From a virus (Duplodnaviria; Heunggongvirae; Uroviricota; Caudoviricetes), in the IMG/VR virus record IMGVR_UViG_2585427710_000015: a stretch of 8,949 nt of DNA. One strand, given 5' to 3'. The translations under genes were made by a program, and so were the position numbers. The first letter of the stretch is position 1. Every line of letters starts with the position of its first letter. Under the pieces are notes generated by a model. That model was not told where the DNA came from and made no database searches. It was given only the letters and a program-made list of their open reading frames with translations. Shown here in pieces: positions 1,451-8,949 of this stretch.

Positions 1451-2028
1451 ACACGGCAGCGGAGGCCATCCGTGCCCTGTCGCAGCAGGTGCCGGGATTC
1501 CGCTGTCAGATGAACGAAGGCTGGTACCAGATACGTATTGCCGGTGAGGATACCGCGCCGGAGGCGGTGTATGCCCGTCTTCATGAACCGCTGAGCGGGA
1601 GGGCCGTGATTCATATTGTACCGAGGCTGGCAGGGGCCGGGGGAAATGGTGTTTTTCAGGTGGTGCTGGGGGTTGCAGCGATTGTCGGGTCATTTTTCAC
1701 TGGTGGTGCAACACTGGCGGCATGGGGCGCAGCCCTGAGTGCCGGAGGGCTGACTGCCACCACGATGCTGTTCTCACTGGGTGCCAGCATGATACTGGGT
1801 GGTGTGGCTCAGATGCTGGCCCCGAAGGCAACGACGCCGGAGTATAAAAGCACGGATAACGGCAGACAGAACACGTATTTTTCGTCACTGGATAACATGA
1901 TTGCCCAGGGGAACCCGATGCCGGTGCCTTACGGTGAAATGCTGGTTGGTTCACGACGGATATCCCAGGACATCAGCACCCGTGATGAGGGCGGAGACGG
2001 GAAAGTGGTGGTTATCGGACGGGGATAA
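1348..2028 (+). CDS. I: Tail tip assembly protein I (gpI-like)
   Basis: 226-aa ORF. The motifs RICL.GDLQRFGRRI, AVIHIVPR.AGA and the Gly/Ala-rich hydrophobic stretch (GSFFTGGATLAAWGAA..GG.T) plus the C-terminal NTYFSSLDNM.AQGN..PV.YGEM.VGSR..SQ.IST.DEG match recalled lambda gpI. The start overlaps the K 3' end by 103 nt. Confidence 0.9.
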   Translation: MATTNAFCLASPPLVRICLHGDLQRFGRRISLYVNTAAEAIRALSQQVPGFRCQMNEGWYQIRIAGEDTAPEAVYARLHEPLSGRAVIHIVPRLAGAGGNGVFQVVLGVAAIVGSFFTGGATLAAWGAALSAGGLTATTMLFSLGASMILGGVAQMLAPKATTPEYKSTDNGRQNTYFSSLDNMIAQGNPMPVPYGEMLVGSRRISQDISTRDEGGDGKVVVIGRG

Positions 2029-2066
2029 AAATAAAAAAATCCCGCAGAGTTAGCGGAGCTGCGGGA
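2029..2066 (-). terminator. Intrinsic (rho-independent) terminator for leftward transcription, placed immediately right of the I stop codon
   Basis: Read on the minus strand: UCCCGCAG-cuccgcuaacu-CUGCGGGA followed by UUUUUUUAUUUUUAU. The stem is 8 bp and GC-rich (+ coords 2040-2047 pairing with 2059-2066), the loop 11 nt, and the U-tract is the complement of + 2029-2039. On the + strand the same hairpin is followed by AGAGAUACG with no U-run, so it terminates only leftward transcripts. Confidence 0.7.
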
Positions 2067-2127
2067 AGAGATACGAAGATTAACTGTAAGGAGTTATTAT
2101 TATGTCACAGCAAAAAAACGGTAACGC
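2029..2127 (-). ncRNA. Candidate ~95-100 nt small RNA, transcribed leftward from the promoter at 2134-2161 and ending at the terminator at 2029-2066
   Basis: A near-consensus sigma70 promoter and an intrinsic terminator on the same (minus) strand bracket about 95 nt with no plausible ORF. Predicted RNA, 5' end approximate: cugcguuaccguuuuuuugcugugacauaauaauaacuccuuacaguuaaucuucguaucucuucccgcagcuccgcuaacucugcgggauuuuuuuauuuuuau. The TSS is predicted and the RNA is hypothetical until detected. Confidence 0.4.
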
Positions 2128-2140
2128 AGAGAAATTATAA
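2102..2140 (+). CDS. Tiny ORF (12 codons, MSQQKNGNAEKL) with a strong Shine-Dalgarno; possibly a leader peptide or a remnant translation start, and possibly not expressed
   Basis: TAAGGAG at 2087-2093 is followed after 8 nt by ATG at 2102, and the ORF ends at TAA 2138-2140. The SD and the whole ORF are fully complementary to the candidate minus-strand RNA. The peptide is short and hydrophilic and does not look like a type I toxin. Confidence 0.15.
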   Translation: MSQQKNGNAEKL

Positions 2141-2161
2141 GCGCCACTGGGATTTTGTGAA
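2134..2161 (-). promoter_or_regulatory. Sigma70-like promoter on the minus strand: -35 TTCACA, 16-bp spacer, -10 TATAAT
   Basis: On the minus strand, -35 TTCACA is the reverse complement of + 2156-2161 (5/6 match to TTGACA). The 16-bp spacer is the complement of + 2140-2155. The -10 TATAAT is the complement of + 2134-2139 and is a perfect consensus hexamer. The upstream minus-strand sequence, which is the 27-bp repeat, is AT-rich and could act as an UP-like element. Predicted TSS is near + coordinate 2127. Confidence 0.55.
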
Positions 2162-2187: not shown

Positions 2188-2339
2188 GTTGCGGAGCTGA
2201 ACTAAAAAACGCTCCCGCAATACACCTGGATATTAACGGGAGGAACGAATAGTCACCTTAAGGAGTTGCGATTAATTGCTTTTATTGACCGCAGGTAATC
2301 TACCCATCCGGCAAGGTTTCCTCCACGGGAATTTGCCGG

Positions 2340-2366
2340 AAATGTGAAGAATTTCAGAAATTTTAT
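2340..2366. repeat. Copy 2 of the perfect 27-bp direct repeat (CRP-box-like TGTGA-N6-TCAGA)
   Basis: Identical to 2161-2187 and 179 bp downstream of it. It lies 12 nt upstream of the rightward terminator hairpin and 86 nt upstream of the J start codon. Confidence 0.8.
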
Positions 2367-2377
2367 TCCGTCATGAC

Positions 2378-2409
2378 ACAGGCACCCTCCGGGGTGCCTG
2401 TCGTTTTCT
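2378..2409 (+). terminator. Intrinsic terminator on the + strand, 43 nt upstream of the J start
   Basis: Perfect 10-bp inverted repeat ACAGGCACCC (2378-2387) / GGGTGCCTGT (2392-2401) with a 4-nt loop UCCG, followed by CGUUUUCUG. On the minus strand no U-run follows the hairpin. Confidence 0.6.
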
Positions 2410-2451
2410 GGCATAAACAGATTCAGACATCAGACAGGAGAGGGGGACAGA

Positions 2452-5400
2452 GTGGGTAAAGGGGGTGGCAAGGGGCACACACCGCGTGAGGCGAAGGACA
2501 ATCTCAAATCCACGCAGATGATGAGCGTGATTGATGCCATCGGTGAGGGACCGGTGGAAGGCCCGGTGAAGGGACTGCAGAGTATTCTGGTGAACAAAAC
2601 CCCGCTGACGGACACGGACGGTAATCCCGTGATACACGGTGTGACCGCCGTCTGGCGTGCCGGGGAGCAGGAGCAGACACCGCCGGAAGGCTTTGAGTCC
2701 TCCGGTGCTGAAACCGCACTGGGCGTGGAAGTGACGAAGGCAAAGCCGGTGACGCGCACCATTACGTCCGCGAACATTGACCGCCTGCGGGTCACCTTCG
2801 GGGTGCAGTCACTGTTGGAGACCACCTCAAAGGGCGACCGTAATCCCTCTTCTGTCCGACTGCTGATTCAGTTGCAGCGTAACGGTAACTGGGTGACGGA
2901 AAAGGATGTCACCATTAACGGCAAGACCACCTCACAGTACCTGGCGTCGGTGATTCTGGAGAATCTGCCTGAGCGGCCCTTTAACATCCGGATGGTCCGG
3001 GAGACGGCGGACAGCACCACGGACCAGCTGCAGAATAAGACGCTCTGGTCGTCATACACCGAAATCATCGATGTGAAACAGTGCTACCCGAACACGGCCA
3101 TTGTGGGGCTGCAGGTGGATGCGGAGCAGTTCGGCGGCCAGCAGATGACGGTGAACTACCATATCCGCGGTCGCATCATCCAGGTGCCGTCAAACTATGA
3201 CCCGGAAAAACGCACCTACAGCGGTATCTGGGACGGCAGCCTGAAACCGGCATACAGCAATAACCCGGCCTGGTGCCTGTGGGACATGCTGACTCACCCG
3301 CGCTACGGGATGGGAAAACGCCTGGGGGCCGCGGATGTGGACAAGTGGGCGCTGTATGCCATCGGGCAGTACTGCGACCAGACGGTCCCGGATGGTTTCG
3401 GGGGCACAGAGCCGCGGATGACCTTTAATGCGTACCTGTCACAGCAGCGTAAGGTGTGGGATGTCCTGGGGGATTTCTGCTCGGCGATGCGCTGTATGCC
3501 GGTATGGAACGGTCAGACGCTGACGTTCGTTCAGGACCGTCCGTCGGATGTGGTGTGGCCGTACACGAACAGCGATGTGGTGGTGGATGATAACGGCGTG
3601 GGGTTCCGCTACAGCTTCAGCGCCCTGAAGGACCGCCACACGGCGGTGGAGGTGAATTACACCGACCCGCAGAACGGCTGGCAGACCTCCACGGAACTGG
3701 TGGAAGACCCGGAAGCCATACTGCGCTACGGGCGCAACCTGCTGAAGATGGATGCGTTCGGCTGTACCAGCCGCGGTCAGGCCCACCGTGCCGGACTGTG
3801 GGTGATAAAGACAGAACTGCTGGAAACGCAGACGGTGGATTTCACGCTCGGGTCTCAGGGGCTGCGGCACACACCCGGTGACATCATTGAAATCTGTGAT
3901 AACGACTATGCCGGGACCCTGACCGGCGGACGCATCCTGTCCATCGATGCCGCCAGCCGCACACTGACGCTGGACCGTGAGGTGACACTGCCGGAAGCAG
4001 GTACATCGACGGTGAACCTGATTAACGGCCGTGGTAAGCCGGTGCGCGTGGACATCACTGCACAACCCGCCCCGGACCGGATACAGGTCAGCACCCTGCC
4101 TGATGGTGTGGAGACATACGGTGTATGGGGACTCTCCCTGCCGTCACTGCGTCGTCGCCTGTTCCGCTGTGTCTCCATCCGGGAAAACACGGACGGCACC
4201 TTTGCCATCACGGCGGTGCAGCACGTACCGGAAAAAGAAGCCATCGTGGATAACGGGGCCCGCTTTGAGCCGATGTCCGGCTCACTGAACAGCGTCATCC
4301 CGCCGGCGGTGCAGCACCTCACGGTGGAGGTGAGTGCCTCAGACGGCCAGTATCTGGCGCTGGCGAAATGGGACACGCCGCGGGTGGTGAAGGGTGTGCG
4401 CTTCAGTCTGCGCCTGACCAGCGGAAGCGGTGAAAACAGCCGTCTGGTGACCAGCGCCATCACTGCCGACACGGAGCACCGTTTCAGTGGCCTGCCGCCC
4501 GGGGAATACACCCTGACGGTCAGGGCGATAAACAGCTACGGCCAGCAGGGCGAACCTGCCACCACCACGTTCCGGATTAACGCACCGGCAGCACCGGCCA
4601 GCATTGAACTGACGCCGGGGTATTATCAGATAACGGCGGTCCCGCATCTTACGGTGTATGACCCGACGGTACAATTTGAGTTCTGGTTTTCGGAGGCAAA
4701 AGTCGCAGACACCGCACAGGTGGAAACGTCCGGCCGTTATCTGGGTACCGGCAGCCAGTGGAGTGTCTCCGGCCCGCACATTAAGCCCGGGAAGGATTTC
4801 TGGTTTTATGTGCGCAGCGTCAACCTGGTGGGGAAATCTGCGTTTGTGGAGGCCAGCGGGCAGGCCAGCAATGATGGTGAAGGGTATCTGGAAATTTTCC
4901 GTGGGCTGATAGATGAGGCGCTGCTGGGGAAGGCACTGAAAGAGCGTATTGATGCGTCAGCCCTGCGTACTGAGGTCACGCAACTGGAAGAAGACATCCG
5001 CCAGCGGCTGGAGACGGATGTTGCGGAAGTGACCCGAAAAATCGGGGAGGCGGAAAACAGCCTCACGCAGCTGGTTGCGAAAAAGAATGAGGACCAGACG
5101 CTGGCCATCGCGCAGGTGAGTCAGCAGGTGGACCGGGTGAGCAGTGAAATCACACAGACAGTCAGCCAGAGCACGGAGGAAAACGCCAGGCAGATAGCGC
5201 AGGTCCGCCAGTACGTGGATGACAAAGGGAGTGAAATCACCTCGACCACGGATAAAAAGCTGGAAGACCAGAGCGCGACCATACAGCAGATACAGCAGGT
5301 CCAGTCAGACACGAATGATGAGCTGGCAGCGCTGTACATGCTGAAGGTGCAGAAAACGAAAAACGGCATTCCGTATGTTGCCGGTATTGGTGCGGGGATT

Positions 5401-6147
5401 GAGGATGCTGATGGCCAGACGCTGAGCAATATTCTGCTGCAGGCGGACCGTATCGCGATGATTACCCCGGAGAACGGCAACACCACGCCGCTATTTGTGG
5501 CGCAGGGGAATCAGTTGTTCATGAACGATGTGTTCCTGAAGCGGCTGTTTGCGGTGAGTATCACCTCGTCCGGCAATCCCCCGACGTTTTCCCTGACGCC
5601 GGAGGGCAGGCTGACGGCCCGCAATGCGGACATCAGCGGACATATCAGTGCGAACTCGGGCACGCTCAATAATGTTGTGATAGCGGAGAACTGTACGATA
5701 AATGGCACGCTGAAAGCGGGAAACATCATCGGGGATCTTATCAAGGGCGGGAGTGGCGCTTTCCCGCGTCAGAATGAGGGCAGTGTGAACTGGCCTTCCG
5801 GAACGCGCACGTTCACTGTGTATGATGATCACCCGTTTGACCGCCAGATAGTGGTACTTCCGCTGACATTTCGCGGAAGCAGGCGTACCGACAGCGGCAG
5901 AACAACATATTCGATGTGTTATCTGAAGGTGCTGATGAACGGTGCAGTGATTTATGACGGCGTGGCGAATGATGCACCTCAGGTTTTCGCCCGAATTGTG
6001 GATATGCGTGCGGGAGGTGGACACGTAACCCTGACATTCACGGTCACGTCCACACGGCATTCGGGAAATATTCCGCCGGATACGTTTGCCAGTGATGTAC
6101 AGGTTCTTGTGATGAAAAAGGGGGCATCAGGTATCAGTATCAGCTGA
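2452..6147 (+). CDS. J: Central tail fibre / host specificity protein J (gpJ-like), 1231 aa
   Basis: GTG start at 2452, preceded by AGGAG at 2436-2440 and a G-rich stretch. The N-terminus [22 protein letters not shown] and the protein throughout are collinear with recalled lambda gpJ (1132 aa). The C-terminus (...[21 protein letters not shown]) is also lambda-like. There is about 100 aa of extra heptad-like sequence around residues 809-980 relative to lambda. Confidence 0.95.
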
Positions 6148-6166
6148 CGGTTTATTAACCCGGACG

Positions 6167-6190
6167 GGCACCCGAAGTGGTGCCTTTTTT
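6167..6190 (+). terminator. Intrinsic terminator after J
   Basis: Stem GGCACC (6167-6172) / GGUGCC (6179-6184), 6-nt loop, followed by UUUUUUAUU (6185-6193). It starts 20 nt after the J stop (TGA 6145-6147). Confidence 0.6.
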
Positions 6191-6215
6191 ATTGACTGAA
6201 AACAAAGAGGTAATC

Positions 6216-6839
6216 ATGCGGTATTTATACGGAGCCATTTTATTTTTTACCACCCTGCCGGCAGTAATGACTTTTCCTGCACAGGCTGCAGGCGGACACG
6301 GTGCATTTTCCGTTGGATATGCTCAGGTTCACCCGGGCGGCGTGCCGGTATTGTCCGGTACCGGTGCCCGTACAGGTGATTTAAAAGGGATCAACGTGAA
6401 ATACCGTTATGAATTCACGGACCATCTGGGCGGCATAGCCTCGCTGAGTTACGCCTCTGCGAAAAAGAGCAGAACCACGATGACCGGGGATAAGGCATTT
6501 CATTATGAAAGTCTGCGTGGCCGTTATGTGAGCCTGATGGCGGGGCCGGTCTGGCAGGTCAGTGAGCAGCTCAGTCTTTATGGCATGGCCGGGATGGCGC
6601 ACACCCGCTGGTCTGACAGTGTTCAGGATTACCGGCGTGATGAAGTGACACCGGGGGATGTCAGGGTGACCACCACTGCCAGTGATGGCCATTCTGCACG
6701 TCATCTGACGCTGGCATGGGGGGCAGGGCTTCAGTTTAATCCGGCGGATACGGTGGCGGTTGATCTTGCGTACGAAGTGGCCGGTCATGGTGACTGGCGA
6801 ACGGATGCGTTTATTGTTGGGATTGGATACCGTTTCTGA
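6216..6839 (+). CDS. lom: Lom-like outer membrane protein (Ail/Lom/PagC/Rck family beta-barrel), a lysogenic-conversion moron
   Basis: ATG at 6216 with AAAGAGG 5 nt upstream. N-terminal signal peptide MRYLYGAILFFTTLPAVMTFPAQA followed by AGGHG. GGHG.F.VGY.QV.PG, LKGINVKYRYE.TD, FHYESLRGRYVS.MAGPV, GDWRTD.FIVG.GY.F match recalled lambda Lom. The position between J and stf matches lambda. The longer ORF from 6177 lacks an RBS and would begin inside the terminator's U-tract. Confidence 0.85.
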   Translation: MRYLYGAILFFTTLPAVMTFPAQAAGGHGAFSVGYAQVHPGGVPVLSGTGARTGDLKGINVKYRYEFTDHLGGIASLSYASAKKSRTTMTGDKAFHYESLRGRYVSLMAGPVWQVSEQLSLYGMAGMAHTRWSDSVQDYRRDEVTPGDVRVTTTASDGHSARHLTLAWGAGLQFNPADTVAVDLAYEVAGHGDWRTDAFIVGIGYRF

Positions 6840-6850
6840 CGGCAGATACA

Positions 6851-6879
6851 GCTTTATCTTCTGTAAATATTGGTATAAT
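6851..6879 (+). promoter_or_regulatory. Candidate sigma70 promoter with extended -10 (TGgTATAAT) between lom and stf
   Basis: TG at 6871-6872, one base, then a perfect TATAAT at 6874-6879. The -35 is weak (GCTTTA at 6851-6856 with a 17-bp spacer). Predicted TSS is near 6886, about 105 nt upstream of the stf ATG and about 60 nt upstream of the next terminator hairpin. Confidence 0.45.
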
Positions 6880-6944
6880 GAGCATGTTCATCACACCTTA
6901 TGGAGTGAACTGCGTCTGAGGAAACGTAAAGTTACACTGTCCTG

Positions 6945-6978
6945 AAGCCCGTGGCATTACTGCTGCGGGCTTTTTTAT
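6945..6978 (+). terminator. Intrinsic terminator downstream of lom, 13 nt upstream of the stf start
   Basis: Imperfect extended hairpin AAGCCCG-UG-GCA uuac UGC-UG-CGGGCUU (6946-6971) followed by UUUUUAUU. No U-run follows it on the minus strand. Confidence 0.6.
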
Positions 6979-6990
6979 TGGTGGAAAGGT

Positions 6991-8949
6991 ATGACGGTTA
7001 AAATTTCTGGTGTGCTGAAGGACGGGGCCGGTAAGCCGGTACCGGGATGCACGATAGAGCTGAAAGCGCGACGCACAACGGAGACGGTGATTGTCACCAC
7101 GGTGGCGTATGGTCAGCCGGGGGAAACCGGCAGTTACAGTATGGATGTTGAGCCGGGGTTGTACCGGGTGACGCTGAACACGGAAGGGTACGCGCCGTCA
7201 TATGTGGGTGACATTCTGGTGAAGGCGGACTCTGCACCGGGAACGCTGAATAAATTTCTGATGGACCTGGAGGACGCACAGTATTACCCGAAAGCCCTTG
7301 CAGAGCTGGAAGCGGTGGCCGCGGAAATCCTGAAACGTGCGGAAGCGTCAGCGGCGAGTGCAGAGGAAGCGAAGAAACGGGCAGAGAATGCGCGGGGACC
7401 GAAGGGGGATAAGGGAGACACCGGGCCACAGGGTATTCCCGGGCCAAAAGGCGATACCGGCGAGCGGGGGCCAAAGGGTGAGCGTGGTGAGAGGGGGCCG
7501 CAGGGGCTTCAGGGTGTGAAAGGTGAACGGGGAGAGAAGGGCGAAAAAGGCGAGCCGGGAGGACCGGATGCGACGACGGCACAGAAGGGAATTGTGCAGT
7601 TAAGCAGCGCAACGGACAGTGATGATGAAACGAAGGCAGCCACCCCGAAAGCGGTGAAAGCGGCAATGGACAAAGCGGACGGATGCCTGGAGAAAGCGAA
7701 AAACGGTGACGATATCCCGGATAAGGTGCAGTTTCTGAACACTGTGGGAGCAGCCAGAGTATACGGGCGGGACATTCATACGGGGGCCGGTGAATGGACC
7801 ACGAGCGAGTTTGTCGCCTGGCTGAAAGCCAAAGGGGCATTTGACCAGCCTTACTGGATGATGAAGGCATCACTGCATGCGGGATTCAATAAGGTCATCA
7901 CGGATGTCGGACCGGGAAAACTTAATCTGGGTGGCTGTGTCATTGAGGTGATGGGGAAGTATGAGGCAGCCATAGTCCGGGTCACCATTGGCGAATACGG
8001 TGCAACGGGGTTTATTAATGGCACGGTCTGTACCTGTACGGTTTACGGCGACACACAGTATTTCCACTGGCGGGTGGATTACAGCACAAAAAACAAACCG
8101 GATACGGTCAGCCAGCGGGATGCCAGCACGACGCAGAAAGGTGTGGTGCAGTTAAGCAGTGATACTGGCAGTAATGACGAAACAAAGGCAGCCACGCCGA
8201 AGGCCGTGAAGGCGGCAATGGATGTGGCAAATGAAGCGAAAACAAAGGCAGAAGAGGCTGCAGCAGGAGGTGGTGTTCCCGGTCCGAAAGGAGATAAAGG
8301 GGACACGGGGCCGGCAGGTCCGGCTGGGCCGAGGGGCCCTCAGGGACCAAAGGGGGATACTGGCGCTCCCGGGGCAAAAGGTGAGAAAGGAGCCACCGGC
8401 GCAACCGGGCCACAGGGAGCAAAAGGGGATAAAGGTGATCCCGGCCCTCAGGGACCAAAGGGGGATGCTGGCGCTCCCGGGGCAAAAGGTGAGAAAGGAG
8501 CCACCGGCGCAACCGGGCCACAGGGAGCAAAAGGGGATAAAGGTGATCCCGGCCCTCAGGGACCAAAGGGGGATACTGGCGCTCCTGGGGCAAAAGGTGA
8601 GAAAGGAGCCACCGGCGCAACCGGGCCACAGGGACCAAAAGGGGATAAAGGTGATCCCGGTCCCCGGGGGGCAACAGGCCCACAGGGACCAGCTGGCTCA
8701 CCGGCAGGTGGTTTGCATGCTGTTGGGGCATTTGTCTTTGCTCAGGCCAGTATAAGTAACAGTGAAAAATATGCCGCAGGTGCCGTGCTTGCGGGAAGTA
8801 AACTGAGAGAATGTAGCATTCAACTGGGCTCTCAGAAAGCAGCCACATTAACCGGTAATACACTGCCAGGAACATGGCGGGTCTGTAGTCCACTTCAGGT
8901 CAGTTCAATATATCCTTACTGTGTGGGGCTGTTTCAGCGTATATCGTGA
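6991..8949 (+). CDS. stf: Side tail fibre protein (Stf-like) with collagen-like Gly-X-Y repeat blocks, 652 aa; the stop codon is the last three bases of the window
   Basis: The N-terminus [28 protein letters not shown] matches recalled lambda Stf ([26 protein letters not shown]). Two copies of the lambda-Stf-like motif [26 protein letters not shown] occur at nt 7573-7677 and 8125-8223. Collagen-like G-X-Y blocks lie at about 7393-7567 and 8269-8710. TGA at 8947-8949 ends the ORF exactly at the window edge, so downstream context such as a tfa gene cannot be seen. Confidence 0.85.
8341..8664. repeat. Three near-identical tandem copies of a 108-bp unit (36 aa, [36 protein letters not shown]) inside the stf collagen-like block
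   Basis: Copies at 8341-8448, 8449-8556 and 8557-8664 differ at only a few positions (gatact/gatgct, ctccc/ctcct, ggagcaaaa/ggaccaaaa). Found by direct reading. Confidence 0.9.

Follow-up and report, generated by a model that had tools for sequence, protein, structure and literature searches.

A conserved, terminator-bounded block with a promoter-like segment between lom and stf of lambda-like prophages: a possible small-RNA gene

DapZ and MicL are 3'UTR small RNAs (sRNAs) that are transcribed from their own promoter, use the terminator of the upstream gene and carry a conserved seed before that terminator; sRNAs of this type bind Hfq and have known targets. In phage lambda, the pR'-tR' unit of the 6S RNA combines a constitutive-looking promoter with a strong terminator located within 100-200 nt, upstream of the late genes.

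PasB, together with EcOnc22-24, is an sRNA of the prophage tail module, described in EPEC and EHEC (PMC8550237, PMC4104026); PasA, PasC and PasD are located in the Q-lysis region, and PasE is located elsewhere in the genome. AgvB and AsxR are anti-sRNAs (Rfam RF02702, RF02703; PMC4104026), and the small RNA 24B_1 of the Stx phage phi24B has been reported from the "lom-vb_24B_43 region" (PMC4426718).

Here, we have analysed the junction between lom and stf in the window, i.e. the whole stretch of 8,949 nt of viral DNA under study, which is the tail end of a lambda-like prophage: the tail assembly genes are followed by J (2452-6147), lom and stf, as called from Pfam matches and from the annotation of the nearest relative. 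The spacer between lom and stf (6840-6990) has a length of 151 nt; an earlier reading of the DNA, made from the sequence only, had set this length against some 64 nt for lambda, and 64 nt is indeed what we have found in the lambda-type phage 434, in the Rac prophage of K-12 and in the Sakai prophages Sp11, Sp12, Sp14 and Sp15. The lom stop, the -10 element, the hairpin and the stf start codon are all located where the sequence-only reading had placed them. The features of the junction are the following:

6216-6839, plus strand: lom, the upstream gene, encoding an Ail/Lom outer-membrane beta-barrel (Pfam PF06316 Ail_Lom, 174.6 bits; RefSeq annotation of the nearest relative)
6837-6839, plus strand: stop codon TGA of lom (sequence)
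6840-6852, plus strand: variable linker after the stop codon (10 of 13 columns vary among 41 haplotypes; diversity 0.171)
6853-6879, plus strand: conserved promoter block TTTATCTTCTGTAAATATTG with the extended -10 TGgTATAAT at 6871-6879 (sequence; diversity 0.038)
6880-6885, plus strand: variable discriminator, from the -10 to the predicted start (3 of 6 columns vary; diversity 0.147)
6886, plus strand: predicted transcription start, a G located 7 nt past the -10, where conservation begins
6886-6910, plus strand: predicted stem-loop 1 (GUUCAUC...GRUGAAC; minimum-free-energy folds of three alleles)
6911-6943, plus strand: near-invariant central segment UGCGUYUGAGGAAACGUAAAGUUACACUGUCCU (alignments A1 and A2; folds)
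6944-6979, plus strand: rho-independent terminator, common to lom, with a 13-bp stem, a UUAC loop and the T-rich TTTATT (terminator scan, fold)
6980-6993, plus strand: stf ribosome-binding site (RBS) GGUGGAAAGG and ATG at 6991 (sequence; start codons annotated in relatives)
6991-8949, plus strand: stf, the side tail fibre gene (Pfam PF08400, PF01391, PF03406)

The stf product begins with an N-terminal domain (Pfam phage_tail_N, 142 bits; ATG at 6991), which is followed by collagen-like and fibre repeats, as assigned by Pfam. At 8335-8660, stf contains three tandem units of 108 nt, 98% identical, which encode collagen-like G-X-Y repeats, and three identical minus-strand terminator-like matches were found there by the terminator scan. 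E. coli 2014C-3097 (NZ_CP027449.1), the nearest genome, matches the window with 100% identity at the lom-stf junction, with 97.3% in 2327-8949 and with 93.9% in 1-2187; its I-J spacer is interrupted by a break, and a frameshift is annotated in its gpJ. Since the identities differ by segment and the I-J spacer of that genome is broken, the window is a mosaic relative of the prophage in that genome, not the same one.

PasB resembles the lom-stf block in several respects: it is an RNA of ~83-85 nt from an intergenic spacer of the lambdoid tail genes, has a sigma-70 promoter and ends at an intrinsic terminator; it is widespread in E. coli as a single copy, and it is found in the same prophages, with prophage PP6 of EPEC E2348/69 carrying both. 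It differs from the block in being located between I and J, antisense to the tail operon, in having no sequence similarity to it, and in being an RNA that is detected on Northern blots, depends on Hfq for its stability and has 37 RIL-seq partners; the location of PasB in the I-J spacer rules out that the block is PasB itself.

The window has its own PasB homologue (minus strand, about 2033-2127). A sigma-70 promoter that is close to the consensus (TTCACA-16-TATAAT) is located at 2161-2134 of the minus strand and is followed by a minus-strand terminator at 2057-2041 with a T7 run, from which an RNA of ~90 nt, antisense to the tail operon, is predicted. This unit (2033-2161, minus strand) is homologous to EPEC PasB, with a terminator part that is 91% identical and a body that is visibly similar, and also to the I-J spacer of Sakai Sp15, where EcOnc22 was mapped. 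The I-J spacer of the window has two copies of the sequence ATAAAATTTCTGAAATTCTTCACATTT, in which the -35 of this promoter is contained (about 2161-2187 and 2338-2366, minus strand), and Sakai Sp15 has one, as found by BLAST; the I-J gap of the window is correspondingly long. A perfect 10-bp hairpin, ACAGGCACCC-TCCG-GGGTGCCTGT, is located at 2378-2401, just upstream of J, and the Hfq-CRAC peak of EcOnc22 (Sakai 2902714-2902774) falls on the homologous hairpin, not on the adjoining promoter-terminator unit.

AgvB and AsxR, like the block, are short prophage RNAs located in moron insertion sites, and they act on the host RNA network. Unlike the block, they have 51-60 nt, are encoded past pR' close to the lysis genes and have a conserved 3' domain of 42 nt in common; identity with either was rejected, as the block is located between lom and stf and cmscan gave no match to them (E-values up to 10; gathering threshold). 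Stem-loop 1 of the window allele contains the motif CAUCACA, a complement of what we take to be the R1 sequence of GcvB; an AgvB-like mimic of GcvB was nevertheless discarded, because CAUCACA is absent from the common allele (CAUCCACC) and is located inside a stem.

24B_1 is also a small RNA from the region just downstream of a phage lom, but it is encoded by the other strand, ~140 nt beyond another lom terminator, and has no detectable homology to the block; a resemblance in 10 of 12 positions (AACGUWAAGUU) is due to chance, and blastn gives no significant alignment. In phi24B (L147, HM208303), a 46-codon open reading frame (ORF) past lom (1485-1625, plus strand) encodes a Hok/Gef toxin (Pfam, 33.2 bits; cut-off 22), and 24B_1, of "microRNA-size", maps to 1393-1412 of the minus strand, ~75-90 nt before the start codon of this ORF. 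Being located upstream of, and antisense to, an ORF of the Hok/Gef family at this distance, 24B_1 belongs to a different module, and by analogy its position looks like the one where a Sok-type antitoxin RNA would sit. In many IMG/VR phages, sequence similar to this region of phi24B immediately precedes stf; the spacer of the window (6840-6990) contains no Hok-like ORF.

The organisation of the junction resembles, by analogy, that of 3'UTR sRNAs with their own promoter and a terminator that is borrowed from the upstream mRNA. As in DapZ and MicL, the candidate promoter is located at or near the end of the upstream gene and the intrinsic terminator of that gene is reused; the promoters of DapZ and MicL are, however, located inside the coding sequence and have known regulators, whereas that of the block is located past the stop codon. 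The block is also similar to the lambda pR'-tR' unit, in that a promoter-like element and then a terminator are located directly upstream of a late gene, but no Q-binding or pause element was identified in it, and nothing suggests antitermination.

An Rfam search, one of the checks proposed with the sequence-only reading, matched no family, either with cmscan at E-values up to 10 (6100-7100) or at the gathering threshold (whole window): the best match, to Qrr, reaches 16 bits against a gathering score of 50 and is driven by the terminator, which is also the cause of a sub-threshold likeness to the Leu and Trp leaders. A full-text literature search for the core sequence returned no paper.

Of 5426 complete E. 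coli genomes, 1637 (about 30%) contain the long form of the junction, with a median of one place per genome, when matches of a 271-nt query that cover at least 80% of the junction are counted; most of the E. coli matches are ~86% identical to the window over this query. The long form is carried by O157:H7, including EDL933 (at about 2.296 Mb), by ST131, by PP6 of EPEC E2348/69 and by E. albertii, as well as by the deposited phages PhiR40_1, PhiR49_2, PhiR5_1, vB_EcoS-569R4 and P-EibA, of which PhiR40_1, PhiR49_2, PhiR5_1 and P-EibA are inducible. In Sakai, the long form was not located: Sp11, Sp12, Sp14 and Sp15 have the short form, and Sp6 is without a lom-stf junction.

The additional ~80-85 nt form a discrete block, absent from lambda-type junctions. 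A long-form locus with a lom that is ~96% identical to that of lambda/434 diverges from 434 at ~45 nt before the lom stop and realigns with it only at the stf ATG, the two terminators being unrelated. Conversely, the locus L217 has a terminator and an stf RBS that are homologous to those of the window, next to a very different lom, and its short spacer lacks ~80 nt, in which the promoter-like segment, both stem-loops (1 and 2) and the single-stranded stretch are contained. Upstream of the block, lom is found in 119 of 120 IMG/VR loci, in a window-type, O157-type or PhiR5-type version, and some of the O157-type copies are up to 96% identical to the lom of lambda/434; downstream, stf is found in 114 of 116 loci, in several types. 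Within the 3' part of lom, similarity to other alleles picks up again at about 6781, and the last ~45-55 nt of the gene move together with the spacer cassette. The cassette itself exists in at least three allele families (window, O157/ST131 and PhiR5_1/P-EibA), and the -10, its TG and the 33-nt centre are retained across all three. The block is thus a discrete, mobile and internally constrained unit. With respect to the definition of a phage moron (Juhala et al. 2000, as cited in PMC4104026), an insertion or deletion is seen relative to both lambda-type and L217-type junctions, the terminator is common to lom and the promoter is recognised by its sequence only.

Set against the allele that is most common (O157, ST131, E. 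albertii), the window shows 95% identity in the predicted RNA body (6886-6943) and 94% in the terminator, as compared to 48-61% in lom and a drop from 70% to about 50% in stf. We have also computed the diversity among the 41 distinct haplotypes of the long-spacer IMG/VR loci: in addition to the values that are listed above, it is 0.048 and 0.025 in the RNA segments outside the search pattern, and 0.207 and 0.263 at the third-codon positions of lom and stf, respectively. Relative to these flanking third-codon positions, diversity is lower by a factor of 4-10 in the promoter segment and in the predicted RNA, and it follows from the values by segment that conservation restarts where a transcript from the -10 should begin (G6886). 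The loci had been gathered by an exact 23-mer (6920-6942), which biases the sample towards conservation, perhaps mildly for the neighbouring positions, and which forces the invariance of 6920-6942 in this set; the same segment is also invariant in five long-form A1 sequences (four of them obtained via BLAST) and in E. albertii, and the sequences collected by BLAST, together with E. albertii, give the same picture of conservation as the IMG/VR loci. Judging from this pattern, recent spread by recombination would not in itself account for two nearly neutral gaps within an otherwise constrained cassette.

The extended -10 named by the sequence-only reading is a perfect match: TGGTATAAT, at 6871-6879, follows the sigma-70 extended -10 pattern (TGn and a TATAAT-like hexamer with A2 and T6), and so do TGTTATGAT and TGTTATAAT, which replace it in relatives. 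The element TGNTATAAT occurs once in the 8949-bp window against 0.09 expected, and since 16 of 200 shuffles (8%) contain it at least once, the match alone is no strong statistic. The same reading was to be abandoned if the TATAAT element were missing from homologous junctions; we have found the TGn-extended -10 in 119 of 120 long-spacer IMG/VR loci (TGTTATGAT in 109, TGGTATAAT in nine and TGTTATAAT in one), while in the one other locus the -10 is destroyed and the RNA body is kept; the reading is not refuted on this count. There is no usable -35 for this promoter, as GCTTTA, at a spacing of 17 bp, matches in one of six positions, and for this reason the two-hexamer promoter scan omitted the site. 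The discriminator reads GAGCAT, ACGCAG or TCGCAG, depending on the allele, and G6886, past it, is also the first base of stem-loop 1.

We have found 11 distinct sequences of the predicted RNA in total. Stem-loop 1 has eight pairs, with 96.5% of the cells paired and one-sided changes only (U-A to U-G), none of them compensatory. Stem-loop 2 of the common allele is predicted to have 7 bp and a GAGG loop and is weakened in the folds of the window allele by C6916; its 31-38 pair is broken in five of the 11 variants, including the allele of the window. On its 3' side, a predicted single strand of ~15 nt, AAGUUACACUGUCCU, is a candidate seed or binding site, while ACACUGUCCUGA, which immediately precedes the terminator, lacks the U-rich character of typical Hfq-binding modules. 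The folding energy of 6886-6982 is -32.5 kcal/mol (z = -2.84) and is largely due to the terminator. None of the 28 pairs has changed on both sides, and three changes are one-sided and compatible; as 11 sequences are too few for such a test to be fair, covariation is evidence neither for the structure nor against it.

There is no conserved ORF on either strand of the block (the minus strand according to our own reading). The 11-codon ATG ORF that had been noted at 6884-6919 does exist, but it is not coding, because its start is lost in relatives (the ATG is AGG in the commonest allele) and its frame is broken by an internal 1-nt indel. A 19-codon ORF on the minus strand was also rejected: it starts in the terminator loop, has no Shine-Dalgarno (SD) sequence and loses its stop in a variant with a 1-nt deletion; two substitutions in it happen to be synonymous. 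Sequestration of the stf SD by UCCACC of stem-loop 1 was discarded as well, as there is no covariation in the PhiR5_1 allele, where the SD is GGGAGA. Predicted pairing of the RNA with the PasB-like RNA of the window, or with the start regions of neighbouring genes, is no better than that of shuffled sequences.

The strong hairpin and U-tract ahead of stf, also part of the sequence-only reading, proved to be the top-ranked terminator-like site of the window: the hairpin (6944-6973) has 13 pairs, seven of them G-C, and a loop of four, as is characteristic of an intrinsic terminator, with -20.7 kcal/mol when it is folded alone. The T6 run is located at 6971-6976, counted from the G-C core of the stem (6947-6970), and in the version with 13 pairs its first three T's are at the same time part of the stem, which they close. 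In the alignment, 99.3% of the cells are paired, the closing pair changing from A-U to G-U, and the U-tail has six U's in the window allele and seven or eight in the other alleles, as is seen in the tails of Hfq-bound sRNAs. A strong intrinsic terminator ends 10-15 nt before the start codon in every stf homologue that was inspected (L150-L229), whatever is located upstream, i.e. a lambda-type, L217-type or hok-type junction or the long cassette; the terminator is therefore a general feature of stf and not part of the block, and stf expression seems always to require read-through of a terminator. The earlier alternative that the hairpin is simply the lom terminator is accordingly true as far as it goes, but it is incomplete, as it leaves the conserved ~58 nt before the hairpin unexplained.

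The expression data that bear on the block come from EPEC E2348/69, in which PP6 carries the common allele and the predicted RNA would correspond to 1470683 to about 1470773 of the plus strand. The Hfq RIL-seq of this strain (PMC8550237, two conditions), with its complete Table S5 of the RNAs that occur in any significant chimera, has no entry for lom, stf or the spacer between them (E2348C_1438, E2348C_1439), as compared to 37 partners for PasB of the same prophage, and the RNA-seq baseMean is about 2 for lom and about 7 for stf. From the lack of a RIL-seq entry and the low baseMean of lom, it is unlikely that EPEC makes an abundant sRNA bound to Hfq in the two conditions studied; the block may still be expressed in other conditions, from the allele with the consensus TATAAT or independently of Hfq. 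No 3' end at the lom-stf terminator is given in the supplement text of a TRS 3'-end study (PMC10687069), an absence that weighs little because the list is selective. Tree et al. kept Hfq sites only if they were antisense to coding regions or more than 100 bp away from them, a filter that would miss the block because of the spacer length of 151 nt.

We tentatively favour, at somewhat less than an even chance, the reading that an unannotated, moron-type small-RNA gene, which reuses the lom terminator, is located between lom and stf; the layout of the junction, the discrete and mobile nature of the block and its pattern of constraint are what we have observed, and from these we infer that the promoter is active, where transcription starts, that the RNA exists and how it would act. 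The sigma-70 extended -10 promoter (6871-6879, without a -35) would start transcription at about G6886, and transcription would end at the lom terminator (about 6976), yielding an RNA of ~91 nt with stem-loop 1, the near-invariant centre with AAGUUACACUGUCCU as a single strand, the terminator hairpin and the U-tail; the RNA would most likely act via the invariant centre, by base pairing or protein binding. This reading is based on the island of conservation, the heterogeneity between segments, the kept -10, the discrete and mobile block and the absence of a conserved ORF, and also on the precedents in the same tail module, i.e. the PasB/EcOnc22 homologue in the I-J spacer and the hok-type module at the lom-stf junction of other phages. 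Against it, we have counted the negative EPEC data, the missing -35, the one variant without a -10 and the absence of compensatory changes, together with the broken stem-loop 2 of the window, the non-U-rich ACACUGUCCUGA, the sampling bias and the absence of an Rfam family.

It is unlikely, in our judgement, that the block is instead a functional 3'UTR of the lom mRNA with no promoter of its own, in which TATAAT is incidental or vestigial and the conserved RNA affects stability or processing, serves a host sRNA or protein as a docking site, or is the source of an sRNA that is cut from the lom transcript. Such a role would agree with the location of the block between the lom stop and the lom terminator, with the cassette boundary in the last ~45 nt of lom, with the presence of lom upstream of 119 of 120 sampled copies, with the missing -35 and with the variant that has lost its -10 and kept its RNA body; but the promoter block (0.038) is constrained like the RNA body while the 13-nt join to lom is free (0.171), and the cassette is paired with lom alleles that are only 48-61% identical in nucleotides. 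A constrained -10, a free 6-nt gap and conservation that restarts at +1 are not predicted by a 3'UTR function alone.

That the terminator alone is functional, and that the additional ~85 nt are a neutral passenger of recent recombinational spread with a -10 that has arisen by chance, is improbable to a similar degree. A sweep would homogenise the cassette, whereas 6840-6852 and 6880-6885 approach third-codon diversity, with 3-7 times less in the segments between, and the cassette is old enough for at least three allele families that keep the -10, the TG and the 33-nt centre. These observations have to be weighed against the mosaic nature of lambdoid tail regions and the movement of the cassette between lom and stf backgrounds, the small number of distinct RNA sequences (about 11) with no covariation, the negative EPEC data, the chance occurrence of TGNTATAAT in 8% of shuffles and the evident viability of short forms without the block.

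We consider it decidedly unlikely that the block encodes an Hfq-independent regulatory RNA, made from its own promoter in lysogens, whose 33-nt centre, with AGGA in a hairpin loop, binds a host protein or RNA; in such a case, absence from Hfq RIL-seq would be expected. A lysogenic or auxiliary promoter of stf-tfa that is held in check by the terminator, as a leader/attenuator or as a small pR'-tR'-like unit with an antiterminator, is very improbable: the order of promoter, ~90-nt leader, terminator and gene, and the weak, terminator-driven and sub-threshold Rfam resemblance to the Leu and Trp leaders, would suit it, but there is no antiterminator pairing in the truncated fold (the 5' arm of the terminator stays unpaired with upstream sequence once the 3' arm is removed), no conserved leader peptide and an stf baseMean of about 7 in EPEC, and, because of the missing antiterminator and the terminator that precedes the RBS of every sampled stf homologue whatever its upstream region, the attenuated stf promoter that had been raised as an alternative finds no support.

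Returning to the small-RNA gene, we find it best classed among the prophage accessory sRNAs with 3'UTR-type architecture, an already known class. AgvB, AsxR and PasA-E are prophage sRNAs that rewire host regulation in pathogenic E. coli. To our knowledge, the known prophage sRNAs have all come from Hfq or CsrA pull-downs, or from analyses with filters that drop short spacers, and the promoter-terminator unit of the block, which is present in O157:H7, ST131, EPEC and E. albertii, would have evaded such screens. If it is not transcribed, the block is still a clear example of non-coding DNA under strong constraint within a mosaic phage junction, for which another explanation is needed. If it is real, a widespread accessory sRNA would be added to those known, and the lom-stf junction would be a second sRNA site in the tail module; and if the RNA is Hfq-independent, it would be a hidden prophage lever on host physiology in about 30% of the complete E. 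coli genomes.
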